DNA of 64,000 bases from an uncultured delta proteobacterium (GCA_963735595.1 CAVTLK010000005.1:352001-416000); one strand, 5' to 3'; positions 3,308 to 21,589 are shown, counted from the stretch's first letter. The notes: a model not told the origin generated them from the letters alone. Numbers and translations: made by a program.

Positions 3308-4918
3308 ATGGAGGGAACACGTGAACGGGGCGAACGGGGCAAGAGCCTCGAGATTATTAAGAAACTGATCTCGGCAAAACAGTCCCTCATTTACGTTGTG
3401 ACCTGGGAGGAAGACCGGCTGGAACGGCTGGTGGACAAACTGGCCAAGAGCATGTTTTCCGCCCCGATCAAGCTTTTTATCTGGCAGGCCACCATGGGCC
3501 TGACGCTCGGCGGAAGGGTCGTCGAGGGCACCAGGGACCCGCTTGCGGCGCTGGACCGCGTAATGGCCATCGAGGAAAACGCGCTCTTCCTTTTCAAGGA
3601 CCTCCACAAGGAAATGGAGATCAACCCGCTCCTGGTGCGGAAGCTCCGGGACGCGTACGACAGTCTGGGGGCTTCGTACAAAACGATATTCATCACGGCG
3701 CCGGTCCTCACGATACCGTTCGAGCTCAGCAAGGAGATGGCGGTGGTCGATTTCGACCTGCCGGCTCCGGAGGAGCTTTCGGTGCTCTTTGCCCAGGTAC
3801 TGGAGTCTTTCGCCAAGTCCAAGGGGATGAAGGCAAACCTTACCGACGCCCAGAAGGACCTCTTCGTCCAGGCGGTCACCGGCCTGACGATAGACGAGGC
3901 CAAGAACGCCCTCACCAAGGCTATGCTTGGAAGGCCGGTGTTTGACATTACGGCCCTGGATGCGGTGCTCGAGGAAAAGCAGCAGCTGATACGGAAGACC
4001 GGCATCCTCGAATTCATCGCCAAGAAGCCGACCATCGACGAGATCGGCGGGCTGGAAAACCTGAAGGCCTGGCTCGAGGCCAGGACCCGCAGCTTCTCGC
4101 CCGAGGCGCGCAAGTACGGCCTCACCGCGCCCAAGGGTGTGCTGATGACCGGCATCTCCGGCTGCGGCAAGAGCATCACCGTCCAGGCTATCTCATCCTA
4201 CTGGAACCTGCCGCTGGTGCGCCTGGATATGAACCGCGTGTACAGCGGCGTAATGGGCTCGCCCGAGGAGACGCTCTTCATGGCGCTCAAGACCGTTGAG
4301 GCGATGGCCCCCTGCGTGCTCTGGATCGACGAGGTGGAAAAGGGCATTGGGTCTTACGGCGGCGAGAAGCGCGATCTGGTCGTCGGCCGGATATTCGCGA
4401 TGTTTCTCACCTGGATGCAGGAGAAGAAAGGCAATGTCTTCGTGGCCGCCACCGCCAACGAGATAGATATGCTGCCCCCCGAAATCCTGCGCAAGGGGCG
4501 TTTTGACGAGATATTCTTCGTGGACCTGCCGGGGATTACCGAGCGCAAGCAGATATTCGGCGTCCATTTGAAAAAGAGAAACCAGGACCCCGCCGCGTAT
4601 AACCTCGTTGACCTTGCCAAGGCTTCCGAAGGCTACAACGGTGCGGAAATAGAGCAGTGCGTGCTATCGGCCCTTTTTGACGCCTTCAACGCTAAACGCG
4701 CGCTGACCATGGACGACCTGATGCGGGCCATCGGTCGGATGGTCCCCCTCAGCAAGACGATGAAGGAACAGATCAAGCGGATCAAGAGCTGGGCGTACAA
4801 CCGGGCGGTGCTGGCCAGTAAACCCGAGAAATATGAGCCGACCTTCGTTCCCAATGACGAATCCAAGAAACCCCAGGAAGATATCATCGTAACGTCGTTT
4901 ACGAAACCCGACCAATAA
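3308..4918 (+). CDS. AAA+ ATPase, Ycf46-like
   Basis: Walker A GISGCGKS, Walker B LWIDEVEK, IGGLENLKAWL, PEILRKGRFDEIFFVDLP; N-terminal degenerate domain with LFKDLH. Confidence 0.93.
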   Translation: MEGTRERGERGKSLEIIKKLISAKQSLIYVVTWEEDRLERLVDKLAKSMFSAPIKLFIWQATMGLTLGGRVVEGTRDPLAALDRVMAIEENALFLFKDLHKEMEINPLLVRKLRDAYDSLGASYKTIFITAPVLTIPFELSKEMAVVDFDLPAPEELSVLFAQVLESFAKSKGMKANLTDAQKDLFVQAVTGLTIDEAKNALTKAMLGRPVFDITALDAVLEEKQQLIRKTGILEFIAKKPTIDEIGGLENLKAWLEARTRSFSPEARKYGLTAPKGVLMTGISGCGKSITVQAISSYWNLPLVRLDMNRVYSGVMGSPEETLFMALKTVEAMAPCVLWIDEVEKGIGSYGGEKRDLVVGRIFAMFLTWMQEKKGNVFVAATANEIDMLPPEILRKGRFDEIFFVDLPGITERKQIFGVHLKKRNQDPAAYNLVDLAKASEGYNGAEIEQCVLSALFDAFNAKRALTMDDLMRAIGRMVPLSKTMKEQIKRIKSWAYNRAVLASKPEKYEPTFVPNDESKKPQEDIIVTSFTKPDQ

Positions 4919-5131
4919 CACCGGCGGAGATATAGCACTATTCCCGACTATCGAGGGTACGCGATCCGGGCGAAGTCAGGAGCAATGAAATCAGAGGGTC
5001 ATTTCAAAGTGGAGGCCCGACGATCTCATGTCCATCGGGCCCATCTGCCGGAAGCGCCCCGGTTTACCGTCGTGCCGGGGCGTCGCGTGCGTCTACATCG
5101 GGCGCGGTGATCCGCCGGGAAGGTATACGAT

Positions 5132-6367
5132 ATGGTGGATTCCGCGTCGCTCCCGGCGGTAAGGGACCTGCTGACTCCCCTGAAAATCGCGGACTTCCGC
5201 AGGCTCGCCATAGGATACGGGGCATCGCTGGTCGGGAGCATGTTCTATTTTATTGCACTGACCTGGTTGACGCTTACGATCAGCGGCTCGGGATTGGTGC
5301 TGGGCTCGGTTCTCGCGGCCTCTGCCGTGCCCCGGGCGCTCTTCATGGTATTCGGGGGGGCCGTGGCCGACCGGTTTTCTCCGAAGGCGGTGCTGATTTT
5401 CTCAAGCGCCGGCAACGCGGTCATCACGGCGGCGCTGGCGGTCATCGTCTTTACGGGAGCCGCGCAGGTATGGCACCTCTTTGCAGCGGCGATACTCCTG
5501 GGGATTGTTGACCCGGTGGCGTACCCGGCGGCCAACGTACTGATCCCCCGGATCGTAGACGCCCAACGCCTGAATACCGCCAACTCGGTCTTCACCCTCA
5601 TGACCTACGCCACCACGGTCATCGGGCCGGCGCTTTCGGGCGTGGTCGTCGGGTATCTCGGGACTGGAGCCGCGCTGGCGGCAGGAGTGGTTGCCGCCGG
5701 CTTCTCGGCGGCAGTGTTCACCCGAATCGGGGCGGGTTCGCCCCTCGAAAGCGACGCACAGGCGCGCGGCTGCCGGGACTTCCTGACCGATATACGCGAC
5801 GGATTCGCCTATTCGTGGAACAACCGGCCGATTCGGGCCGTAATCGTACTGCTGGCGGCCATCAACCTCACCCTCATCGGCCCGGTCGTGATCGGCGGAA
5901 GCGTACTTGCCGAAACGCACTTCGGGGGGGCGCGGACCTTCGGTTTGATCATATCGTCGTGGGGTTTGGGCGGTTTTATCGGCGCGATCGCGGCGGGGAT
6001 GTCGCCGGTACGACGGGTCGGGACGGCGCTGATCGGGGCAAGCGCGGTCATGGGAGCCGGGATCCTTTCGATCGGGTTTTTGCCCCCTATTGCCGTGGTT
6101 CTGGCGATCAATTTCGTCATGGGCCTTTCCAACGGCTGGATCGAGGTGATCATTACCACCTGGCTTCAGATTCAATCGGGAGAAGGGATGCGGGGGCGCA
6201 TCATGGGGATTACCGCGGTAGCGGCTATCGGGCTTGAGCCGGCTTCATACGCGCTGACGGGCGTCCTCGTCGGCGACGGGCTCGCGGCCGTCTTCCTTTC
6301 GGCCGGGGCCGCGCTTTTGTTGGCGACGCTGTTGACGGCCGGCAGCCGCGCCCTGCGCGCGGCGTGA
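5132..6367 (+). CDS. MFS transporter (efflux-type)
   Basis: 411 aa, about 12 hydrophobic segments, GGAVADRFS motif A, MRGRIMG in the C-terminal half. Confidence 0.9.
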   Translation: MVDSASLPAVRDLLTPLKIADFRRLAIGYGASLVGSMFYFIALTWLTLTISGSGLVLGSVLAASAVPRALFMVFGGAVADRFSPKAVLIFSSAGNAVITAALAVIVFTGAAQVWHLFAAAILLGIVDPVAYPAANVLIPRIVDAQRLNTANSVFTLMTYATTVIGPALSGVVVGYLGTGAALAAGVVAAGFSAAVFTRIGAGSPLESDAQARGCRDFLTDIRDGFAYSWNNRPIRAVIVLLAAINLTLIGPVVIGGSVLAETHFGGARTFGLIISSWGLGGFIGAIAAGMSPVRRVGTALIGASAVMGAGILSIGFLPPIAVVLAINFVMGLSNGWIEVIITTWLQIQSGEGMRGRIMGITAVAAIGLEPASYALTGVLVGDGLAAVFLSAGAALLLATLLTAGSRALRAA

Positions 6368-6536
6368 ACAGGTTCCCGATACGATCGGCCATGCCGTCGG
6401 CGATATAGAGTCCCCGGTTACCGGGATAGGGTATGTGTCGGACCGTGGGCTTGGTTAAAGCCGGTCTATATACTAGGGGCTTTCCGGCCGATGCTATATA
6501 ATATATAATATGTGTAGTAGATCCTAACGATAAGGG

Positions 6537-7886
6537 ATGACCATGACCATCGAAACGTTTATCCTCGAGGCAATCCTGATATTTGTCCTGATCCTTGCCA
6601 ACGGCTTTTTCGCGGGCTCGGAGCTTGCCATTATTACCTCCCGCAAGAGCCGGGTCAAGACCCTGGTGGAAGAAAAAAAGCGCGGGGCCGTCGACCTGCT
6701 GGACCTGAAGGAAGACCCCGAGAAGTTCCTCTCCACCATCCAGATCGGGATCACGATTGTCGGCTCGCTGGCATCCGCGGTGGGCGGCGCCGCCGCAGTC
6801 AACGTGCTGCCCGGTTTCGTCCAGCGGGTGCCCGTGGGGTTTATCGCGGAATCGGCCGATGCCGTTTCCATCATTATCGTGGTCGTAATCATATCCTACT
6901 TTTCGCTCGTGCTGGGTGAGCTTGTTCCCAAGTCGCTCGCCATCAGGTACTCGGAAAAGATAGCCCTGTTCGTGGCCGGGCCGATCCGCTTCTTTTCGCA
7001 GGCCACGTACCCGGCCGTACGCTTCCTGACGACATCCAATCACCTCATCCTCAGGCTGGTGGGGCTCTCAAAGAAAATCGACTCGTCGTTTATCACCGAG
7101 GAGGAGATCCTGCAGGTCCTCAAGGAGGGGGAAGAAAAAGGGGTCATAGACGAGACGGAGCATGAGCTGATCCACTCGATCTTTGATTTTTCCGACCGGC
7201 ACGTCAAAGAGGTCATGGTTCCGCACCCGAACGTCCAGGCCGTGAACATCGACTGGAACAAGGGTGAGATTCTTAAGTTTATCGTCGAAAAGGGATACAC
7301 GCGGTACCCGGTCTACGAAAACTCGCTTGATAACGTCGTGGGGGTTCTCAACAGCAAGGAAGTCCTCAACCGTCTCGTGAGCAGGAAACCGTTTAAGATC
7401 AGGGAGATAATGCTCCCTCCGTTCTTTGTCCCCGAATTCAAGGCCATATCAGACCTCCTCAAGGAGATGCAGAAGAAGCGCATGCACTTGGCGCTGGTGG
7501 TGGACGAGTACGGGGCAATCGCCGGGCTCGTGACGATGGAGGACCTCTTCGAAGAGATCGTCGGGGAAATAGAGGACGAGGGCAAGGGCGGCGCGGACGG
7601 TATGGTGAAAAAACTCAAGGGCGGAATCATGCTTATTGACGGCTCAACGTCAATCCGTGATCTGATCAACATCTGGGGACTTGCCCTGAGCGATTCCGAG
7701 GCTTACGAGACTATCGCGGGGATGCTCCTTTCCCGGCTCCAGGCGATGCCCAAGGGCGGTGAGGTTATCCACCAAAGCGGATACAAGTTCATGATCCTGG
7801 AGGTTGATAAGAACCGTATTACCAAGGTGCGGGCGGAGCGGGAGGAAGCCCCGTCCGCCCCAAAAACGAAGAAGCCGACTAAATAG
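6537..7886 (+). CDS. hemolysin-family CNNM/CBS/CorC domain protein
   Basis: ANGFFAGSELA, FLSTIQIGIT, GELVPKSLA, CBS pair, VVDEYGAIAGLVTMEDLFEEIVGEI, C-terminal CorC domain. Confidence 0.95.
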   Translation: MTMTIETFILEAILIFVLILANGFFAGSELAIITSRKSRVKTLVEEKKRGAVDLLDLKEDPEKFLSTIQIGITIVGSLASAVGGAAAVNVLPGFVQRVPVGFIAESADAVSIIIVVVIISYFSLVLGELVPKSLAIRYSEKIALFVAGPIRFFSQATYPAVRFLTTSNHLILRLVGLSKKIDSSFITEEEILQVLKEGEEKGVIDETEHELIHSIFDFSDRHVKEVMVPHPNVQAVNIDWNKGEILKFIVEKGYTRYPVYENSLDNVVGVLNSKEVLNRLVSRKPFKIREIMLPPFFVPEFKAISDLLKEMQKKRMHLALVVDEYGAIAGLVTMEDLFEEIVGEIEDEGKGGADGMVKKLKGGIMLIDGSTSIRDLINIWGLALSDSEAYETIAGMLLSRLQAMPKGGEVIHQSGYKFMILEVDKNRITKVRAEREEAPSAPKTKKPTK

Positions 7887-10954: not shown

Positions 10955-10984
10955 TTGACAAATATAGTTAAGCTGCTATACTAT
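10955..10984 (+). promoter_or_regulatory. marR promoter with overlapping operator-like inverted repeat
   Basis: TTGACA 10955-10960, extended -10 TGC-TATACT 10974-10982; imperfect inverted repeat ATAGTTAAGC-T-GCTATACTAT 10964-10984. Confidence 0.7.
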
Positions 10985-10988
10985 CCCC

Positions 10989-11465
10989 ATGTTGGACGAC
11001 CTTGAAAGGTTCGAGATACTCACCGACGAGGTTAACCGCCTCATAGCGCGGGTCCAATCCCTTCATACGCCCAACTTCGATTTCGGCACTGGGATACCGT
11101 TGTATCGCGCCGAGATTCACACTATTGATATTGTCGGTAAAAATCCGGGGATCAACGTAACCCGGCTTTCCGAACGTATCGGGGTCACCAAAGGCGCGGT
11201 TTCCCAGATGCTGACAAGGCTTGCCAAAAAGAAGCTGATAGAAAAAAGGGCGGTATCGGGAAACGAGAAGGAACGCATGATCGAACTGACCGGCCTCGGG
11301 CACCTGGCTTATGAAAATCACCGGACCCTTCACCGCCATATCTTTACGTTCCTCCAAAACCACTACGGCGCGGCGCTGCCGTCGCGGCTCGAACGGTTTC
11401 AGGAAGTGGTCGGTGAGCTTTCGAAAATCCTTTCGACCGTAGAAGGGCATAAGGATACGGTGTAA
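10989..11465 (+). CDS. MarR family transcriptional regulator
   Basis: AEIHTIDIVGKNPGINVTRLSERIGVTKGAVSQMLTRLAKKKLIEK winged-helix pattern followed by LTGLG. Confidence 0.93.
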   Translation: MLDDLERFEILTDEVNRLIARVQSLHTPNFDFGTGIPLYRAEIHTIDIVGKNPGINVTRLSERIGVTKGAVSQMLTRLAKKKLIEKRAVSGNEKERMIELTGLGHLAYENHRTLHRHIFTFLQNHYGAALPSRLERFQEVVGELSKILSTVEGHKDTV

Positions 11466-11520: not shown

Positions 11521-12123
11521 GTGACCGGGAAAAGAGATACGGCCGCGGCGCGTGGTGGAAAATATTCCATCTGTCCGTGGTGGCTGGTGAAGTCTTTCGA
11601 TAATTTCCTTCGGCCGCTCGTTCATGACTCCCGGAAGCTCTTTGGCCCGTACGTCCGGCCAAATATGACGGCCGTCGATGTCGGGTGCGGGCGGGGGTTT
11701 GCCTCCCTCGGGCTCGCCCGGTTGGTCGGCGGCGGCGGAAATGTGATCGCCGCCGATCTCCAGCCCGAGATGCTCGAAATGGTGAGGAATCGGGCGGAAA
11801 AGAACGGACTCTCCGAACGGATACTGACGCACCGGTCCGCTCAGGGCAGGATCGGCGTTACGGGGCCGGTCGATTTCGTCCTCGCATTCTGGATGCTGCA
11901 CGAGGTGCCGGACGCCGCGGCGTTTTGTGCGGAGGTATCGGCGATGCTGGCGCCCGGCGGCCATTTCTTTGTGGCCGAGCCGCTCTTTCATGTGACGCAG
12001 CGCGGTTTCAAGGAAATGACCGAGGTTGCCGGCGCGGCAGGTCTGGCCGTTTTCGAGCACCCGCGCGTTGCCCTCAGCCGGGCGGTGGTATTCACGAAGA
12101 AGAAAAGGAGAAAGGAGGAATAA
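11521..12123 (+). CDS. class I SAM-dependent methyltransferase
   Basis: GTG start after GGGAGG; motif I VDVGCGRG, IAADLQPEML, MLHEVPD, LAPGG; N-terminal CPWW..DN.LR segment. Confidence 0.92.
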   Translation: MTGKRDTAAARGGKYSICPWWLVKSFDNFLRPLVHDSRKLFGPYVRPNMTAVDVGCGRGFASLGLARLVGGGGNVIAADLQPEMLEMVRNRAEKNGLSERILTHRSAQGRIGVTGPVDFVLAFWMLHEVPDAAAFCAEVSAMLAPGGHFFVAEPLFHVTQRGFKEMTEVAGAAGLAVFEHPRVALSRAVVFTKKKRRKEE

Positions 12124-12126
12124 ATT

Positions 12127-12924
12127 ATGAGAAGCGAACAGTCACCTAAGGGCGGCGTCGTCGCCGCGGAAGGAACGCTCTACCTGGGGGTCGGGCGCTA
12201 CATGATTACCATTCCGCCGTGCCTGATGAGGATGGGGGCCGCCGGAAGCGCCCGGCAGGCGGATAAGCTGCTGGCCCGTTTGTCCCCGGAACACCACCTC
12301 GTTCGGGATTTCGTCGTGACCGAGATCCCGAGAAAGGCGGCGTCTCTCTCCGCGGACTACATCGCGCATCAATTGGACCTTCCCATTGGACGGGTTCGGG
12401 ACATCGTTGATGAGCTCGAAAAGGGGAAGGTGTTTCTATTCAGGAATGAGCGTGGTGAGGTTACCTGGGCCTACCCGGTGACCGCAGAACCGACGCCGCA
12501 CCACGTGACGTTCAGCACGGGCGAGCAGATCTATGCGGCCTGAGCCATCGACGCCTTGGCGCTGCCCTTCGTGCAAGGGCAATTGATAAAACGGCCGCTC
12601 TCGTTCGTCATCAGGAGCGAATGCAAGAACAGTGGAGACCCCATCGAGATTGCCATCGACAGCGACCTGCGATACCGGGTCGCCGACGAGCAAGGCGGCG
12701 TGAGGGTGTTCGTCCCGATGGTGGACGTGATAACGCTCGACGAGCCCAGCATCATCGATTCCTTCTGACGACGATCGGTGTTCTTCCGGTCGGAAGAAGA
12801 CGCGAAGAAATACCGTCGTGCCTGCAAGGGGGTTAAGGGCCTCTACCTTACGCTCGACCATGGCGTATATCTCACGAGGGTCATCCAGTCGGCAATCTTC
12901 GCTTTCTCGAAACGTGCCCGGTGA
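12127..12924 (+). CDS. MerB-like (organomercurial lyase family) protein with two putative selenocysteines (U139, U214), 265 aa
   Basis: Reading through TGA 12541-12543 and TGA 12766-12768 gives ...AYPVTAEPTPH...IYAA-U-AIDALALPF...RSECKNSGDPIEI...IIDSF-U-RRSVFFRSEEDAKKY..., collinear with MerB YAWCALD, SHCAATG and QSFCCHVHFF. SD AAAGGAGGA at 12111-12119; stop TGA 12922-12924. Confidence 0.88.
12563..12581 (+). promoter_or_regulatory. putative SECIS element 1
   Basis: Stem TGCCCTT/AAGGGCA with loop CGTGC; the loop begins 26 nt after the first TGA. Confidence 0.65.
12781..12798 (+). promoter_or_regulatory. putative SECIS element 2
   Basis: Stem TTCTTCC/GGAAGAA with loop GGTC; the loop begins 19 nt after the second TGA. 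Confidence 0.72.
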
Positions 12925-12972
12925 GGGATCTTTTACCCGGCGAATCCGGGTTGAAGGGAGATACCTCGTTTG

Positions 12973-13017
12973 AAAACAGGGGCGGCTTCCCAGGAGGGGG
13001 GCCGCCCCGATTGTTTT
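12973..13017 (+). terminator. intrinsic terminator-like hairpin after the merB-like gene
   Basis: GGGGCGGC...GCCGCCCC stem flanked by AAAACA and TGTTTT. Confidence 0.6.
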
Positions 13018-13113
13018 ATGCCGTAATGGTGAGGTACCTTGCTTCATGCCCGTCGGCCCGAACCCGGACTCGATGGGGGGCAGCCCCCTCTCTTCGGACT
13101 TTCCCTTTTTGCG

Positions 13114-13141
13114 TTGACAAAAAGCCGCCTTCCTTTATAAT
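13114..13141 (+). promoter_or_regulatory. consensus sigma70 promoter
   Basis: TTGACA 13114-13119, 16 nt, TATAAT 13136-13141. Confidence 0.7.
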
Positions 13142-13240
13142 GAAAAAGAGCCCAATGCGGTACATTATTCCGATTTCGTTGTCATATCATTATGTTCCTT
13201 TGTATGCCGGGGCCCGTGCGACGGGCCGACGGGGCGGCGC

Positions 13241-13276
13241 CGATACTGGCGATACGGGCGATACAGGCGATACGGG
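13241..13276 (+). repeat. 9-bp tandem repeat (CGATACNGG x4)
   Basis: CGATACTGG CGATACGGG CGATACAGG CGATACGGG read directly. Confidence 0.85.
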
Positions 13277-13290
13277 AAGTCACAGCCGAA

Positions 13291-13737
13291 ATGGACGCTA
13301 CCGATAGAAAGATCCTGAAGGTTATCCAGGAAGCGTTCCCGCTGACCGATACCCCCTTTTCCGACGTGGCCGGTCCGCTGGGGCTTGCCGAGGCCGAGGT
13401 TATTTCCCGGATCGCGGCCCTCAAGCAGGCCGGCGTTATAAGGCGCATCGGGGCGGTGCTTGATGCGCGGTCGCTGGGCGTTGCCACGATACTGTGCGCG
13501 ACTCGGGTGGACCGGGAGCGGATCGAGGAAGCGGCAGCCGCCGTCAGCTCATTTCGTCAGGTCACGCATAACTACGAGCGGGATGGGGATTACAACCTCT
13601 GGTTTACCGTCTGGGCGCGGGACGAGGACGAGCTGGACCGCACCATCCGCGATATCGAGGGAAAAGCCGGGATCTCGGTCATACGCCTTCCGGCGGTCGA
13701 GACCTATAAGATCAGGGCGGTCTTTGACCCGTCCTGA
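13291..13737 (+). CDS. siroheme decarboxylase subunit-like Lrp/AsnC protein (AhbA/NirD family)
   Basis: MDATDRKIL..IQEAFPL...PF, GVIRRIGAV and VTHNYER...YNLWFT signature. Confidence 0.88.
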   Translation: MDATDRKILKVIQEAFPLTDTPFSDVAGPLGLAEAEVISRIAALKQAGVIRRIGAVLDARSLGVATILCATRVDRERIEEAAAAVSSFRQVTHNYERDGDYNLWFTVWARDEDELDRTIRDIEGKAGISVIRLPAVETYKIRAVFDPS

Positions 13738-17762: not shown

Positions 17763-18998
17763 ATGCGATACGAGCTTTTCATCGGCCGCCGCTACCTGAA
17801 GTCCAAGCGCAAGCAGGCCTTTATCTCGCTGATAACCCTCATCTCAGTGGGGGGGGTCGCCCTGGGGGTGGCGGCGCTTATCGTCGTCACGTCGGTGATG
17901 ACCGGCTTCACCAAGCAGCTGACCGATAAGATCCTCGGCGTCTATTCCCATCTCGTCGTCCTCAAGGAGGGCGAGCCCTTCAATGATTACCCCGAGATCA
18001 TGGGCCAGCTCGGCAAGATCCCCGGGGTGGTCGCTTCGACCCCCTTCATACAGACCCAGGTGATGCTGACGGGGGTCGACGGCGAGATGACGGGGGCGGT
18101 ACTGAGGGGGGTGGACGTTGCCACGGCGCCCGCGGTTATCTCCGTCAAGCGGGACATGGTCAAGGGGAGCTTCGAAGACCTGGAAAGGGCGCAGGACCAG
18201 TCCCCGGGCGTCATCCTCGGCACGGGCCTCGCCGAGAAACTCGGGGTGGGTGTCGGCGATGAGCTGGTCATGCTCTCGCCCGATGGGGGGGGAGGTCTCG
18301 CCCTTTGGGATGACCCCAAAGATGAAACGGTTTGCCGTCGTCGGGATCTTCGATTCGGGCATGTTCGAATACAACGGCACCTTTGCCTACGTCTCGCTGC
18401 GGTACCGCCCAGGGCTTCCTCGAAGTGCCGGGGGCGGTCACCGGTATCGAGGTCAGGCTTGCCGACGTCTACCGGGCAAAGGACACCGGGAAGCTCATCC
18501 GGGCCACGCTCTCGTTCTCGTACTACGTGCTTGGACTGGATGGACATGAACCGGAACCTGTTCGCGGCGCTGGCCCTGCAGAAGGCGACGCTCTTCGTGA
18601 TCCTCACGCTCATCATCTTTGTGGCGGCCTTTAACATCGCCTCGACCCTCATCATGGTGGTGATGGAGAAGAACAAGGATATCGCGATCCTCACGGCAAT
18701 GGGTGCTACGCCGGGGGGCATCATGCGGATATTCATGTTCGAGGGGTTCGTCGTCGGGGCGTTCGGCACGATGATCGGGCTTGCCCTCGGCCTGGGGGCG
18801 TGCCGCCTGCTGGAGCGCTACCACTTCATCGACCTTGACCCGAAGATATACTATTTCACGACGCTGCCGGTACAGGTCGTGCCCTCGGACGTGGCGATCA
18901 TCATCGGCGCGTCGCTTTTGATCTGCCTGGCCTCGGCCGTCTACCCGGCCTGGCGGGCCTCCCGGATGGACCCGCTTGACGCCATCCGGTACGAGTAA
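17763..18998 (+). CDS. lolE: lipoprotein-releasing ABC transporter permease LolC/E, paralogue 1 (three compensating frameshifts)
   Basis: YELFIGRRYL..KRKQAFISLI, VAAFNIASTLIMVVMEK..DIAIL, YPAWRASRMDP; the segment ~18280-18530 is correct only in the alternative frames. Confidence 0.88.
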   Translation: MRYELFIGRRYLKSKRKQAFISLITLISVGGVALGVAALIVVTSVMTGFTKQLTDKILGVYSHLVVLKEGEPFNDYPEIMGQLGKIPGVVASTPFIQTQVMLTGVDGEMTGAVLRGVDVATAPAVISVKRDMVKGSFEDLERAQDQSPGVILGTGLAEKLGVGVGDELVMLSPDGGGGLALWDDPKDETVCRRRDLRFGHVRIQRHLCLRLAAVPPRASSKCRGRSPVSRSGLPTSTGQRTPGSSSGPRSRSRTTCLDWMDMNRNLFAALALQKATLFVILTLIIFVAAFNIASTLIMVVMEKNKDIAILTAMGATPGGIMRIFMFEGFVVGAFGTMIGLALGLGACRLLERYHFIDLDPKIYYFTTLPVQVVPSDVAIIIGASLLICLASAVYPAWRASRMDPLDAIRYE

Positions 18999-19029
18999 CG
19001 GGACATAATTACTACGGAAGGGGATTAGC

Positions 19030-19812
19030 ATGAGACGATCGATCGGCCTCTTTCTCGGATTTGTAATCTTTTTGGCTGCGGCCTTTACGGCGGTAGCCGC
19101 CGACAACGCCACCATCACCGGCGACGGGGTGCGGATGCGCTGGGAGTCGAGAACCGACGCCGAGATCATCACGACCCTCAATAAAGGGACGCGGGTTGAG
19201 GTGGTCAGCCGGTCGCAGGTCTACCAGACGATAGGCGGCGATTCCGCCTTCTGGTACTACGTCACGTACGGTAAAGACTCGGGATTTGTCTTCGGCCGCT
19301 TCATCGCCATAGACCCCGCGGCCGCGCCCTCATTCGAGCCGGTGATGCTGCCGGGCGGTCCGAGCTTCCCGTTCGAGGACTGGGGGGCGTGCCCCATGGA
19401 GTGCTGCGCCTATCGGGAGTGGAGCGTTGAAAAGGAGACGGTCGTCCGGACCGACCGGTACGAAACGGCCCCGGCGGCCTTTACCGTGAAGCCGGGCGAG
19501 TGGGTGACGGGGCTGACCGGCGTAGTGATCGTGACGGCGCCGGGTCGCGGCGAAGTGACGACGTCCATGAAGCTGGGCGAACGCCAGGCCTCGCCGGGGG
19601 ACGTCGTGGAATACCTCACCTACCAGGGGGAGGGATTCTACAAGGTCTGGTTCAAGGGCCAGATGCTCGACGGGGTGGAAGGCTACGGGTCGGTCGTGAT
19701 GAAGGCGGAGCCGGTCTGGATCTGGTGGGCCGAGATCAAGAATAAGAAGGGGCAGGTCGGCTGGACGAACGAGGTGAGGAACTTCGGCAACATCTACTCG
19801 TGCGGGGATTAG
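19030..19812 (+). CDS. secreted SH3-domain-containing protein
   Basis: Signal peptide ending AVAA; bacterial SH3 pattern (GVRMR...IITTLNKGTRVEV...WYYV...GFVFG); second domain after GACPMECCAYREW. Confidence 0.8.
   Translation: MRRSIGLFLGFVIFLAAAFTAVAADNATITGDGVRMRWESRTDAEIITTLNKGTRVEVVSRSQVYQTIGGDSAFWYYVTYGKDSGFVFGRFIAIDPAAAPSFEPVMLPGGPSFPFEDWGACPMECCAYREWSVEKETVVRTDRYETAPAAFTVKPGEWVTGLTGVVIVTAPGRGEVTTSMKLGERQASPGDVVEYLTYQGEGFYKVWFKGQMLDGVEGYGSVVMKAEPVWIWWAEIKNKKGQVGWTNEVRNFGNIYSCGD
19753..19812 (+). repeat. 60-bp direct repeat, copy 1 (3' end of the SH3 gene)
   Basis: 58/60 identical to 21093-21152. Confidence 0.92.
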
Positions 19813-19872
19813 AGGGGCTGAAAGAATGCGGGGCCCGACGCTCCAAACGAAACGACGGAAACAACAATAAGT

Positions 19873-19904
19873 AATAAGGGCGGCCTAAAAAGGCCGCCCT
19901 TATT
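19873..19904. terminator. bidirectional terminator
   Basis: AATAAGGGCGGCCT-AAAA-AGGCCGCCCTTATT perfect stem between convergent genes. Confidence 0.8.
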
Positions 19905-19907
19905 GTT

Positions 19908-20726
19908 TCAAACATGCGAAGACCCGGGTATCATACCCCGCCGCGTGATTCGATCCCGTATGAAGTTGTATATCCGCATAGACACATAGAGGACGAACAA
20001 CAACAGCAGCACCATGACCAGGGCCGCCGCGTCATAGTCGGTGGGACGGAAGTTAGTCAACGGAAAGACTATTTCGGCAATGCCTTCGGTCCTTACGTCT
20101 TGGATGATAGCAAGGAGAGCTGCTACCGAGCAGAATCTGAGTATCCGCGAAACTTCGTTTCGCGTTACACGCGCCCAGGAGAACCCCCGGAAGATCGTCC
20201 GAACCGCACCGATCGATGGCGGGCTCGGGAATATCTCGGGGACGTTTGATTCATATTCAGTATATGCCGCCCCGTGTTTTATCGCGAGCCTCTCGTTTTC
20301 GACCTTAAGCGTCGGCCCGTAGGCCCAGAAAAAGAAGAAGGGATACAGGGCGATCAGGTAGATATTCCCGACAATCAGGCAAAAACTCATTTCAACCAAG
20401 AAGTTGGCCAGGTAAAAGGGGTGCCGGACTAAAGCATACGCCCCCTCGGTGCAGAGGACCCTGGTGCGAATGAGCTGCCCCTTGACGAGCAGATGAAGGC
20501 TAATACCGACGAACAGGAGAAAGAGAGCGAAGGAGATTCGAACGGGCTCGATACCGGCGGGCAGCAGCAAAGACAGAACGATGGAGGCGGTAATCAGGGC
20601 GTTTCTGAGATTGCCCCGATTTAAGAAGAAACGTGCTTGGGATTTTTCCACAGTATGTATCCGAAGCTCCGCGGTATCCGCAGCACAGGAAGACGGCGCA
20701 TTTTCCGCTGTCTTTTTCTTACTCAT
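19908..20726 (-). CDS. isoprenylcysteine carboxyl methyltransferase/PEMT-family membrane protein
   Basis: LCTEGAYALVRHPFYLAN and ENERLAIKHGAAYTEYESNVP signature. Confidence 0.85.
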   Translation of the reverse strand: MSKKKTAENAPSSCAADTAELRIHTVEKSQARFFLNRGNLRNALITASIVLSLLLPAGIEPVRISFALFLLFVGISLHLLVKGQLIRTRVLCTEGAYALVRHPFYLANFLVEMSFCLIVGNIYLIALYPFFFFWAYGPTLKVENERLAIKHGAAYTEYESNVPEIFPSPPSIGAVRTIFRGFSWARVTRNEVSRILRFCSVAALLAIIQDVRTEGIAEIVFPLTNFRPTDYDAAALVMVLLLLFVLYVSMRIYNFIRDRITRRGMIPGSSHV

Positions 20727-21092
20727 CAGTCGTTCCCCTTACAATAGGATTATCCAAAAGAATGGGTACCGAATCGTGAACATGTTGCGCTCGCGTATTC
20801 TTAACGTAGTATATCGCCAGAATAGCCGAATCATCGAGAGGGGAGACCGGGCTGTATTCCTACGACCCATATACACCTTTGAACGTCACCGGACCGTGGC
20901 GCTCCGTCCTATTCAAAATATTATACTGCGGATAATAGAATATACGGAATCACCTGTCAATACGGTTTGGTATTATAATTTGTTAATAGGATTACGACGG
21001 TCCCAAACGCCGTGAGGCCGACAGGCCTTCGTTATTAAGTATAGCGAATAATGATGAGGTATGGCGGGCCGGGATCGGAAGCAAGACCGGTA

Positions 21093-21152
21093 CAGGTCGG
21101 CTGGACGAACGAGGTACGGAACTTCGGCAACATCTACTCGTGCGGGGATTAG
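21093..21152 (+). repeat. 60-bp direct repeat, copy 2
   Basis: CAGGTCGGCTGGACGAACGAGGTACGGAACTTCGGCAACATCTACTCGTGCGGGGATTAG. Confidence 0.92.
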
Positions 21153-21185
21153 GGGAGAACCAGGTTTTCGGGATGTAATCCGGTT

Positions 21186-21405
21186 CCGTCATTGCGAGGG
21201 AGCGACGCGACCGAGTCAATCTCATCATCGCGTCCGGTTCTTGTGTGGTCGTGTCTTCCCTCGCGACTAATGATCCCCGGCGGCTGGGAGATGGCCGAGT
21301 TCGGCCTGATCTCTCCGAAGAGCGGTTCTGAAGAGTGATCGCTTCGCTTGGCTTGCGATCACCGACGAGACAGCCGCGCCGCCTGTCGACGGCCCGCAAT
21401 GACGG
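21186..21405. repeat. isolated CGTCATTGCG palindromic (REP-like) unit
   Basis: CCGTCATTGCGAG at 21186 and CGCAATGACGG ending at 21405; same ends as the arrays at 54.6-61.4 kb. Confidence 0.75.
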
Positions 21406-21589
21406 GGTTGGGATTTGCGCGGTTAGTGCGGGTTACGGTGACAGTATATATTATATATATGACTTCCCGGCTTAAGCAGGCACCCTATCAATAAGGTTCA
21501 TCATCACCGTAATCCGGATTGTCGCCCGCGCATCCGGTTCGCGCCGATATCGAGGTTTCCGGTCTTAATAAATATGCCGCCCGGATATG

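Follow-up and report, generated by a model that had tools for sequence, protein, structure and literature searches.

To our knowledge, MerB is the only enzyme family known for cleavage of the C-Hg bond of methylmercury, and it is an open question, as far as we know, which genes beyond the mer operons account for methylmercury demethylation in anoxic sediments. The roles of the MerB residues Cys96, Asp99, Cys117 and Cys159 are well established. Here we describe a gene from an uncultured delta proteobacterium that encodes a MerB-fold protein of 265 residues with two in-frame UGA codons (12127..12924, the end including a terminal TGA). It lies in a stretch of 64,000 nucleotides (GCA_963735595.1 CAVTLK010000005.1:352001-416000), the whole of which is termed the window; all positions are counted from its first letter, and all features discussed lie on the plus strand. 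The assignment draws on the reading frame, Pfam, homologues and a structural model. Sequence comparisons indicate that the gene very probably encodes a genuine double selenoprotein, and that the branch of MerB-like proteins with two selenocysteine (Sec) residues to which it belongs is real, conserved, widespread and missed by standard annotation.

The nearest described system is that of SaoL, a MerB-like "selenocysteine-assisted organometallic lyase" (Haft and Gwadz, bioRxiv 10.1101/2022.07.06.499078). According to the accessible part of that preprint, the active site of MerB comprises Cys96, Asp99 and Cys159, while SaoL bears its one Sec within a Cys-Sec dipeptide, retains Cys on the Cys96 column, and marks the nine-gene SAO locus. 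The 2026 review of the prokaryotic selenoproteome, in its accessible portion, distinguishes 119 families or subfamilies, and the single MerB-like entry of its Table 1 is SaoL, with the motif CU and one Sec (PMC13188914); the same single SaoL entry appears in the corresponding portion of a 2022 review. A full-text literature search, from which supplements and subscription journals were excluded, returned no MerB relative with Sec at both catalytic positions.

The initial annotation of the window had named SaoL as a Sec-containing MerB-like protein while declining to say whether a two-Sec subfamily was already recognized, and this caution proved well placed, as SaoL, with its CU motif and one Sec, forms a subfamily of its own. 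As far as the accessible part of the preprint describes SaoL, the two have in common their membership of the MerB family, a Sec on the Cys159 column, truncation in databases at the UGA and occurrence in anaerobes, and for both there is a suspicion that their role extends beyond classical mercury resistance. However, SaoL has Cys on the Cys96 column, whereas the protein of the window has Sec on both columns; a CU dipeptide in the former contrasts with Phe-Sec in the latter; and in place of the SAO locus unrelated neighbours are found here. The SaoL model NF040728 fails its cut-off on the window's protein (60.3 bits against 140) and matches residues 51-180 only, and no CU motif is present in this protein, its Sec contexts being SFU (Phe-Sec) and AAU (Ala-Sec). 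In the genome to which the window belongs (3.63 Mb in 5 contigs, 93% complete) no match to SaoB was found, the SaoB model being likewise silent in all control genomes, and the best SaoP match, on another contig, reached 32 bits against a cut-off of 295. Two or three Sec per polypeptide are found in catalogued prokaryotic selenoproteins such as MbdU, MduS and the ArsM fusion selenoproteins, several of which are linked to metals or metalloids, although their folds, as described in the accessible portion of the 2026 review (PMC13188914), are unrelated to that of the two-Sec MerB-like protein.

Reading frame and relationship to MerB

The frame opening with the ATG at 12127 and ending at 12924 contains exactly two internal stops, both of them TGA, as had been claimed for it at the outset; the third TGA, at 12922-12924, closes it, and the read-through product has 265 residues. 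Translation table 11 divides it into the two open reading frames (ORFs) of 138 amino acids (aa; 12127-12543) and 70 aa (12556-12768) noted previously, and a third of 48 aa (12778-12924); the second begins with a TTG at 12556, 13 nucleotides (nt) past the first UGA. The strings IYAA-U-AID, SECKNSG and IIDSF-U-RRSVFFRSEEDA, where U denotes Sec, had been singled out in the initial annotation, and each of them is found in the read-through translation.

When searched with Pfam hidden Markov models (HMMs), the read-through protein matches the MerB family PF03243 across both TGAs (residues 119-251, 69.8 bits against a gathering score of 27, E 2.7e-19, profile positions 2-122 of 126). HMMER alignment to solved MerB chains confirms the proposed correspondence of the active-site columns: the first UGA, codon 139 (12541..12543), aligns to Cys96 and the second, codon 214 (12766..12768), to Cys159, so that the predicted Sec residues occupy the positions of both catalytic Cys. 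The same alignment places Asp142 (GAC, 12550..12552) on the proton donor Asp99 and Cys166 (TGC, 12622..12624) on the structural Cys117, both residues being retained as annotated and invariant in 25 of 25 homologues from the phylum, with Cys166 encoded by TGC in 19 and by TGT in 6. A correspondence of this kind lies well outside what chance would produce. Conservation at the protein level continues after each TGA. A model built by AlphaFold2 from the 25-sequence family alignment displays the MerB fold with good scores (mean predicted local distance difference test 87.5, predicted template-modelling score 0.85), and a Foldseek search of the PDB with this predicted structure gave 11 matches at E <= 0.001, every one of them a MerB (best E 3.2e-12). 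The corresponding template-modelling scores are 0.58-0.80 when normalised by the target and 0.45-0.64 when normalised by the query, the latter being lower because of an N-terminal extension of about 50 residues that lacks a MerB counterpart. This is the only MerB-family gene in the genome.

The window's protein thus has the fold, the catalytic columns, the structural Cys and the catalytic Asp in common with the solved MerB structures (3F0O, 3F0P, 3F2F, 1S6L), at an identity of about 20%. The strict MerB catalytic set Cys96/Asp99/Cys159 was not found, as the Asp is kept while both Cys columns are UGA/Sec; since Sec is chemically analogous to Cys, this speaks against strict membership of MerB but not against a MerB-like mechanism. 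Apart from the N-terminal extension, it further differs from MerB in that Trp95 is replaced by Ala138, which is invariant, in that the Cys160 column is occupied by Arg, Lys, His, Thr or Gln, and in the absence of a merA, merT or merP context in this genome. Whereas MerB is carried on resistance plasmids and transposons, the two-Sec family sits in uncultured, mostly anaerobic lineages. NCBIfam release 20.0 has no model that covers the protein.

Conservation and phyletic distribution of the two-UGA family

Full-length homologues (E <= 1.4e-54, 40-90% identity) are present in 25 of the 401 genomes of a phylum sample, the window's own included, and all 25 have TGA at both columns, in agreement with the expectation that close relatives would share them. 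A scan with one genome per species, seeded by the peptide VxWAYPVT, which covers neither Sec column, retrieved 252 related loci, and the best 80 of these 252 again all possess TGA at both columns (13 of the 80 were read by eye where the pattern missed). The two sets overlap in part, with L045, L046 and L047 of the scan corresponding to G003, G002 and G009 of the phylum sample. Judged by their record titles, the best 80 loci belong to Chloroflexota (Anaerolineae and Dehalococcoidia), delta-proteobacterial and Thermodesulfobacteriota lineages, Bacteroidota, Gemmatimonadota, Rokuibacteriota, Binatia, Spirochaetales and Margulisiibacteriota, and the proton-donor Asp is present in all the rows printed from them.

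Mean pairwise identity in the family is 52% before the UGAs, 53% between them and 56% after them. The relaxed selection beyond the TGAs that would have spoken against the double-selenoprotein claim was not seen: the ratio of nonsynonymous to synonymous substitution rates (dN/dS) is 0.07-0.50 over all three segments in 9 pairs, one value being undefined. This purifying selection after the UGAs implies that the segments following them are translated. The two TGAs also recur in independent assemblies, namely contigs from four public metagenome runs, where no change at either UGA occurs among the differences listed; a 200-nt piece matches the window exactly over the first UGA, and a single contig covers the entire gene with 43 differences. 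In three of the four runs the contigs cover the gene only in pieces, and 37 differences lie outside the listing. Among the public sequencing runs that contain this DNA no RNA run was listed, and the DNA shares are all <= 0.14, which has no bearing on expression.

These data bear directly on the possibility that the gene is dead or split, that is, that nonsense mutations or assembly errors have left a 138-residue stub or three small proteins. The ORFs of 138, 70 and 48 aa given by standard annotation would accord with such decay, as would a second, frameshifted copy in the genome G002. This explanation is nevertheless extremely unlikely, given that all 25 phylum homologues and all of the best 80 loci, at identities as low as 40%, contain the same two TGAs, that dN/dS remains at 0.07-0.5 after each TGA, and that independent metagenome contigs agree.

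In a profile search of 1.84 billion representative proteins, 1267 matches were obtained at E <= 0.001, of which 78 reach E <= 1e-30. Among the 150 matches listed, the majority are stubs of about 125 residues that break off precisely where the first UGA stands. Eight listed relatives (P0027, P0032, P0033, P0036, P0038, P0041, P0099 and P0111) carry Cys at site 1 and terminate precisely at site 2, providing the Cys-containing counterparts that the initial annotation had suggested looking for, and two distant relatives among the matches listed, P0025 and P0028, combine Ser at site 1 with Cys at site 2. Some public gene calls (P0002-P0004 and P0026) give W at both sites. The supposition that standard annotation would miss the family is borne out, as the public gene calls examined either stop at the first UGA, under the label "hypothetical", or give W at both sites.

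Further arrangements of Cys and Sec were observed in other MerB-like proteins. L044 (G116:C1, about 3284256-3287774) has UGAs on the same two columns (LYAM-U-AGGAI and LDGF-U-PRVQFFCTEEH), is devoid of an Asp three residues past the first Sec, and is 21% identical to the window's protein. L040 (G372:C24, about 107158-110535) has Cys at site 1 and a UGA in WACGT-U-NIMNFF. In L041 (G379:C9, about 69885-73226), a MerB whose Cys96 column holds Cys and whose Cys159 column holds UGA (..AAGSL-U-RTMVFL) is found in a mer-operon-like cluster, whose other members, read by eye, are a MerR-like gene, an HMA/MerP-like gene with GLTCAAC and a MerA-like flavoprotein; the all-Cys counterpart is L043 (G380:C57, about 18094-21435; ..AAHSL-C-REMVFL). 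If real, L041 would represent a selenoprotein within a classical mercury-resistance operon, of which none was known according to the accessible part of Haft and Gwadz (bioRxiv 10.1101/2022.07.06.499078).

Candidate SECIS elements

Each of the two UGAs is followed by a hairpin resembling a selenocysteine insertion sequence (SECIS). Hairpin 1 (12563..12581), recognized by folding and comparison, has the form UGCCCUU-CGUGC-AAGGGCA, with a loop that starts 29 nt after the U of the first UGA, and encodes the invariant peptide PFVQG. It is paired in 97.9% of alignment cells, and its core is identical in 71 of the 80 further loci. Hairpin 2 (12775..12805 with its lower stem) is composed of UUCUUCC (12781-12787), the loop GGUC (12788-12791) and GGAAGAA (12792-12798), and encodes FF(R/W)SEE, its 25-nt core folding with a z of -3.84. 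Across the codon alignment of the 25 sequences, P147, F148, V149, Q150, G151, F220 and E223 have a codon entropy of 0-0.24 bit, while the remaining invariant residues of this protein have 0.5-2.3 bit. Synonymous sites are thus constrained, pointing to a constraint that acts on the RNA in addition to the protein. The closing pair of hairpin 2, which links the first base of the Arg/Trp codon with the silent third base of the next-but-one Ser codon, covaries, being U-A in 15, C-G in 10 and unpaired in none of the 25 sequences; among the 80 further loci it is U-A in 76, C-G in 3 and U-G in 1. The retention of both hairpins almost base for base across phyla accounts for the invariance of the peptides PFVQG and FF(R/W)SEE.

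A conserved RNA hairpin trails each UGA, and a reading of both codons as Sec is therefore very likely. From what is known of SelB and SECIS elements, with a UGA in the ribosomal A site, SelB-GTP carrying Sec-tRNA(Sec) would bind a hairpin loop 22-29 nt downstream, whereupon Sec would be inserted, while the third UGA (12922..12924), which has no conserved hairpin, would end translation. The family has TGA as terminal stop in 17, TAG in 5 and TAA in 3 of the 25 homologues, and no conserved sequence was found 3' of this stop across the family. In the window itself a hairpin does follow the terminal UGA (12922-12966; ACCCGG-CGAAU-CCGGGU, -20.9 kcal/mol, z -2.43), and L013, from the same genus, is the only relative with a similar sequence there. 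Read-through of this UGA was considered and rejected, since conservation of the extension does not reach beyond the genus and since 8 of the 25 homologues have TAA or TAG as their stop.

Selenocysteine machinery

The genome encodes the machinery for Sec that the initial annotation had asked for: SelA, SelB, SelD and tRNA-Sec are all present, SelB being recognized by its wing domain within a 681-residue frame and the tRNA having the anticodon TCA. There are two SelD-like genes 19 kb apart: the first (L005, G000:C3:6046-6975) has, at the usual place near its N-terminus, an in-frame UGA (..CAKAAG-U-AAKTAPGS) with a hairpin after it, and the second (L006, G000:C3:24832-25476) has no internal stop. 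The locus accordingly combines the features by which bacterial selenoproteins are recognized, namely a UGA on a Cys column, a stem-loop shortly downstream and Sec machinery in the genome, and these, along with conservation of the two codons in 25 of 25 and 80 of 80 homologues, support the original proposal that both UGAs encode Sec.

A different form of read-through, in which the UGAs are read as Trp, Cys or Gly through near-cognate tRNAs or a reassigned code, would match those public gene calls that give W at both sites. It is very unlikely in view of the use of TGA as an ordinary stop in this genome, where long table-11 ORFs lie all round and the gene itself ends in TGA, and of the complete Sec machinery. 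Moreover, the UGAs fall on catalytic Cys columns, where relatives have Cys, and the RNA-constrained hairpin after each of them would be unneeded under a reassigned code.

Genomic context

The gene is the last of three same-strand genes that are bracketed by promoter-like and terminator-like sites and form an apparent unit. A MarR-family regulator gene comes first (10989..11465; Pfam MarR_2, MarR), followed by a gene for a class I S-adenosylmethionine (SAM)-dependent methyltransferase (11521..12123; Pfam Methyltransf_25/11/31), whose TAA stop ends 3 nt before the ATG at 12127. A Shine-Dalgarno sequence GGAGG, read in the sequence at 12114..12118, is situated 8 nt 5' of this ATG. By consensus match, a promoter-like site (10955..10982; TTGACA, 16-nt spacer, TATACT, 11/12 with TG) is found 5' of the marR-like gene, and a terminator-like element (12979..13018), consisting of a hairpin of 13 pairs, 11 of them G-C (12979-13008), and a T-rich tail, begins 55 nt 3' of the stop of the lyase-like gene. 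Beyond this unit, a gene at 13192-13737 passes the NCBIfam cut-off for the siroheme decarboxylase subunit AhbA (143.5 against 140 bits), with a perfect 12/12 sigma-70-like promoter (13114-13141) on its 5' side.

Regulators are the most frequent neighbours of the family. Pfam identifies an adjacent MarR or MerR regulator in 10 of the 25 phylum loci (MarR in 7, MerR in 3), and the MarR gene, in the 7 loci where it is adjacent, is always upstream on the same strand. Clustering of the neighbouring ORFs of 103 loci by all-against-all BLAST gave a MerR-like cluster in 13 loci and a MarR-like cluster in 8, all others recurring in at most 5; these 103 include duplicates from overlapping sets, at least L016 and L047 being the same contig. 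Expression would probably be controlled by the adjacent MarR regulator, and by a MerR regulator in other lineages.

The best NCBIfam matches of the methyltransferase are weak and far below cut-offs; they are to ArsM-type/arsenite-methyltransferase selenoprotein families and a corrinoid-protein-associated methyltransferase. A couple of methylation and demethylation was rejected as a general feature of the family, as the methyltransferase adjoins the lyase gene only in the window's own genus. In the same genus, G002 has a second marR-methyltransferase-lyase copy (L017/L019, G002:C7, about 3521-7301) in which the lyase frame is broken by frameshifts, representing either a decaying duplicate or a long-read assembly error.

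Functional inferences

By analogy with the MerB mechanism, the selenolates of U139 and U214 would grip the soft metal of an R-metal compound, and Asp142 would donate a proton to the carbon, resulting in protonolytic cleavage of the C-metal bond. At neutral pH selenolates are deprotonated, and their binding of Hg is tighter than that of thiolates. Given this acidity and affinity for Hg, the family would be adapted to reduced habitats in which the substrate is very scarce. On balance, we favour the reading in which a single gene, with its two UGAs read as Sec by means of the hairpins, gives rise to a likely organometal lyase that acts most likely on organomercurials. Taken separately, the lyase activity on an organometal or organometalloid is, from the analogy, somewhat probable, whereas the choice of mercury as the metal can be put forward only tentatively.

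Several observations weigh against this interpretation. At the level of the RNA, hairpin 1 is nearly invariant and hence offers almost no covariation; single-sequence folds of 45-60 nt after the first UGA are no better than shuffles (z -0.37 and -0.91), which leaves the SECIS case to rest on the comparative data; and an Rfam scan of 12000-13100 gave noise only, with no match to a SECIS family. SelA was not matched in G153 and G359, 2 of the 25 genomes with both UGAs, though SelB is present in both, and as SelA is near-ubiquitous in the sample (371 of 401 genomes) its co-occurrence with the family is uninformative. At the level of the protein, the NCBIfam MerB equivalogs NF009710 and NF033555 were missed by a wide margin (53.9 against 193 and 52.1 against 200 bits). 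As for the context, no mer operon was found in the genome, the neighbours being the MarR and SAM methyltransferase genes and the AhbA-like gene; no MerA in it passes the cut-off, the best candidate scoring 387 against 454 bits at a distance of about 317 kb; and no conserved enzyme or transporter partner emerged from the 103 loci. HgcA is likewise not found over the cut-off in this genome, nor in the window's own family within the phylum sample, and its co-occurrence with the two-UGA gene is only partial (13 of 25 genomes as against 105 of 376 others; odds ratio about 2.8, hand-calculated and with related genomes not being independent), making the HgcA link a weak lead. Finally, an Hg(Se)2 product may be too tightly bound for release, which would hamper catalytic turnover on mercury.

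The absence of a MerA partner and the strength of Hg-Se bonds leave other organometal(loid)s or non-catalytic binding as rivals. In the latter case, the protein would be a real double selenoprotein but no lyase, serving as a selenolate clamp for a soft metal (Hg, Cu, Cd or Ag), a diselenide/selenol redox protein or a metal-sensing module; as a clamp, the MerB fold would sequester the metal or hand it on with very high affinity. This alternative draws on the lack of MerA or any other product-accepting partner in the genome or beside the gene, on MarR or MerR regulators being the only recurrent neighbours, on the weak resemblance of the N-terminal part of the model to winged-helix regulators (Foldseek E 0.01-0.2), and on general chemistry, by which very strong Hg-Se bonds hamper product release. 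The Hg site of MerB, moreover, binds other metals, according to the accessible part of Haft and Gwadz (bioRxiv 10.1101/2022.07.06.499078). On the other hand, the proton donor Asp142, unneeded by a pure binding site, is invariant in 25 of 25 homologues, and the entire MerB catalytic core is conserved under purifying selection; a non-lyase role is accordingly deemed possible but doubtful, and the lyase interpretation is preferred. A still more specific proposal holds that the MerB-like proteins with both UGAs form a selenium-dependent family of organometal lyases in anoxic habitats, and that they are the missing methylmercury demethylase, independent of mer operons, of anaerobes in sediments and soils, in many of which hgcA is present as well. 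It appears unlikely as it stands.

Implications

The two-Sec proteins would constitute a sister family of MerB in which both metal-binding Cys residues are replaced by Sec, with relatives encoded in no fewer than 252 species-level genomes that represent several, mostly uncultured, bacterial phyla. As the public gene calls examined are cut at the first UGA or misread both UGAs as Trp, surveys that count merB would miss the family. The presence of two separate putative coding-region SECIS elements in one short bacterial gene would offer a clean natural example of this arrangement. If the proposed activity is true, the reading of demethylation potential in metagenomes would change, and a selenium-based catalyst for organometal cleavage would be at hand. 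If the demethylase reading holds as well, two selenolates in place of two thiolates would allow substrate capture at trace levels, and the microbial selenium and mercury cycles would be joined in one active site.

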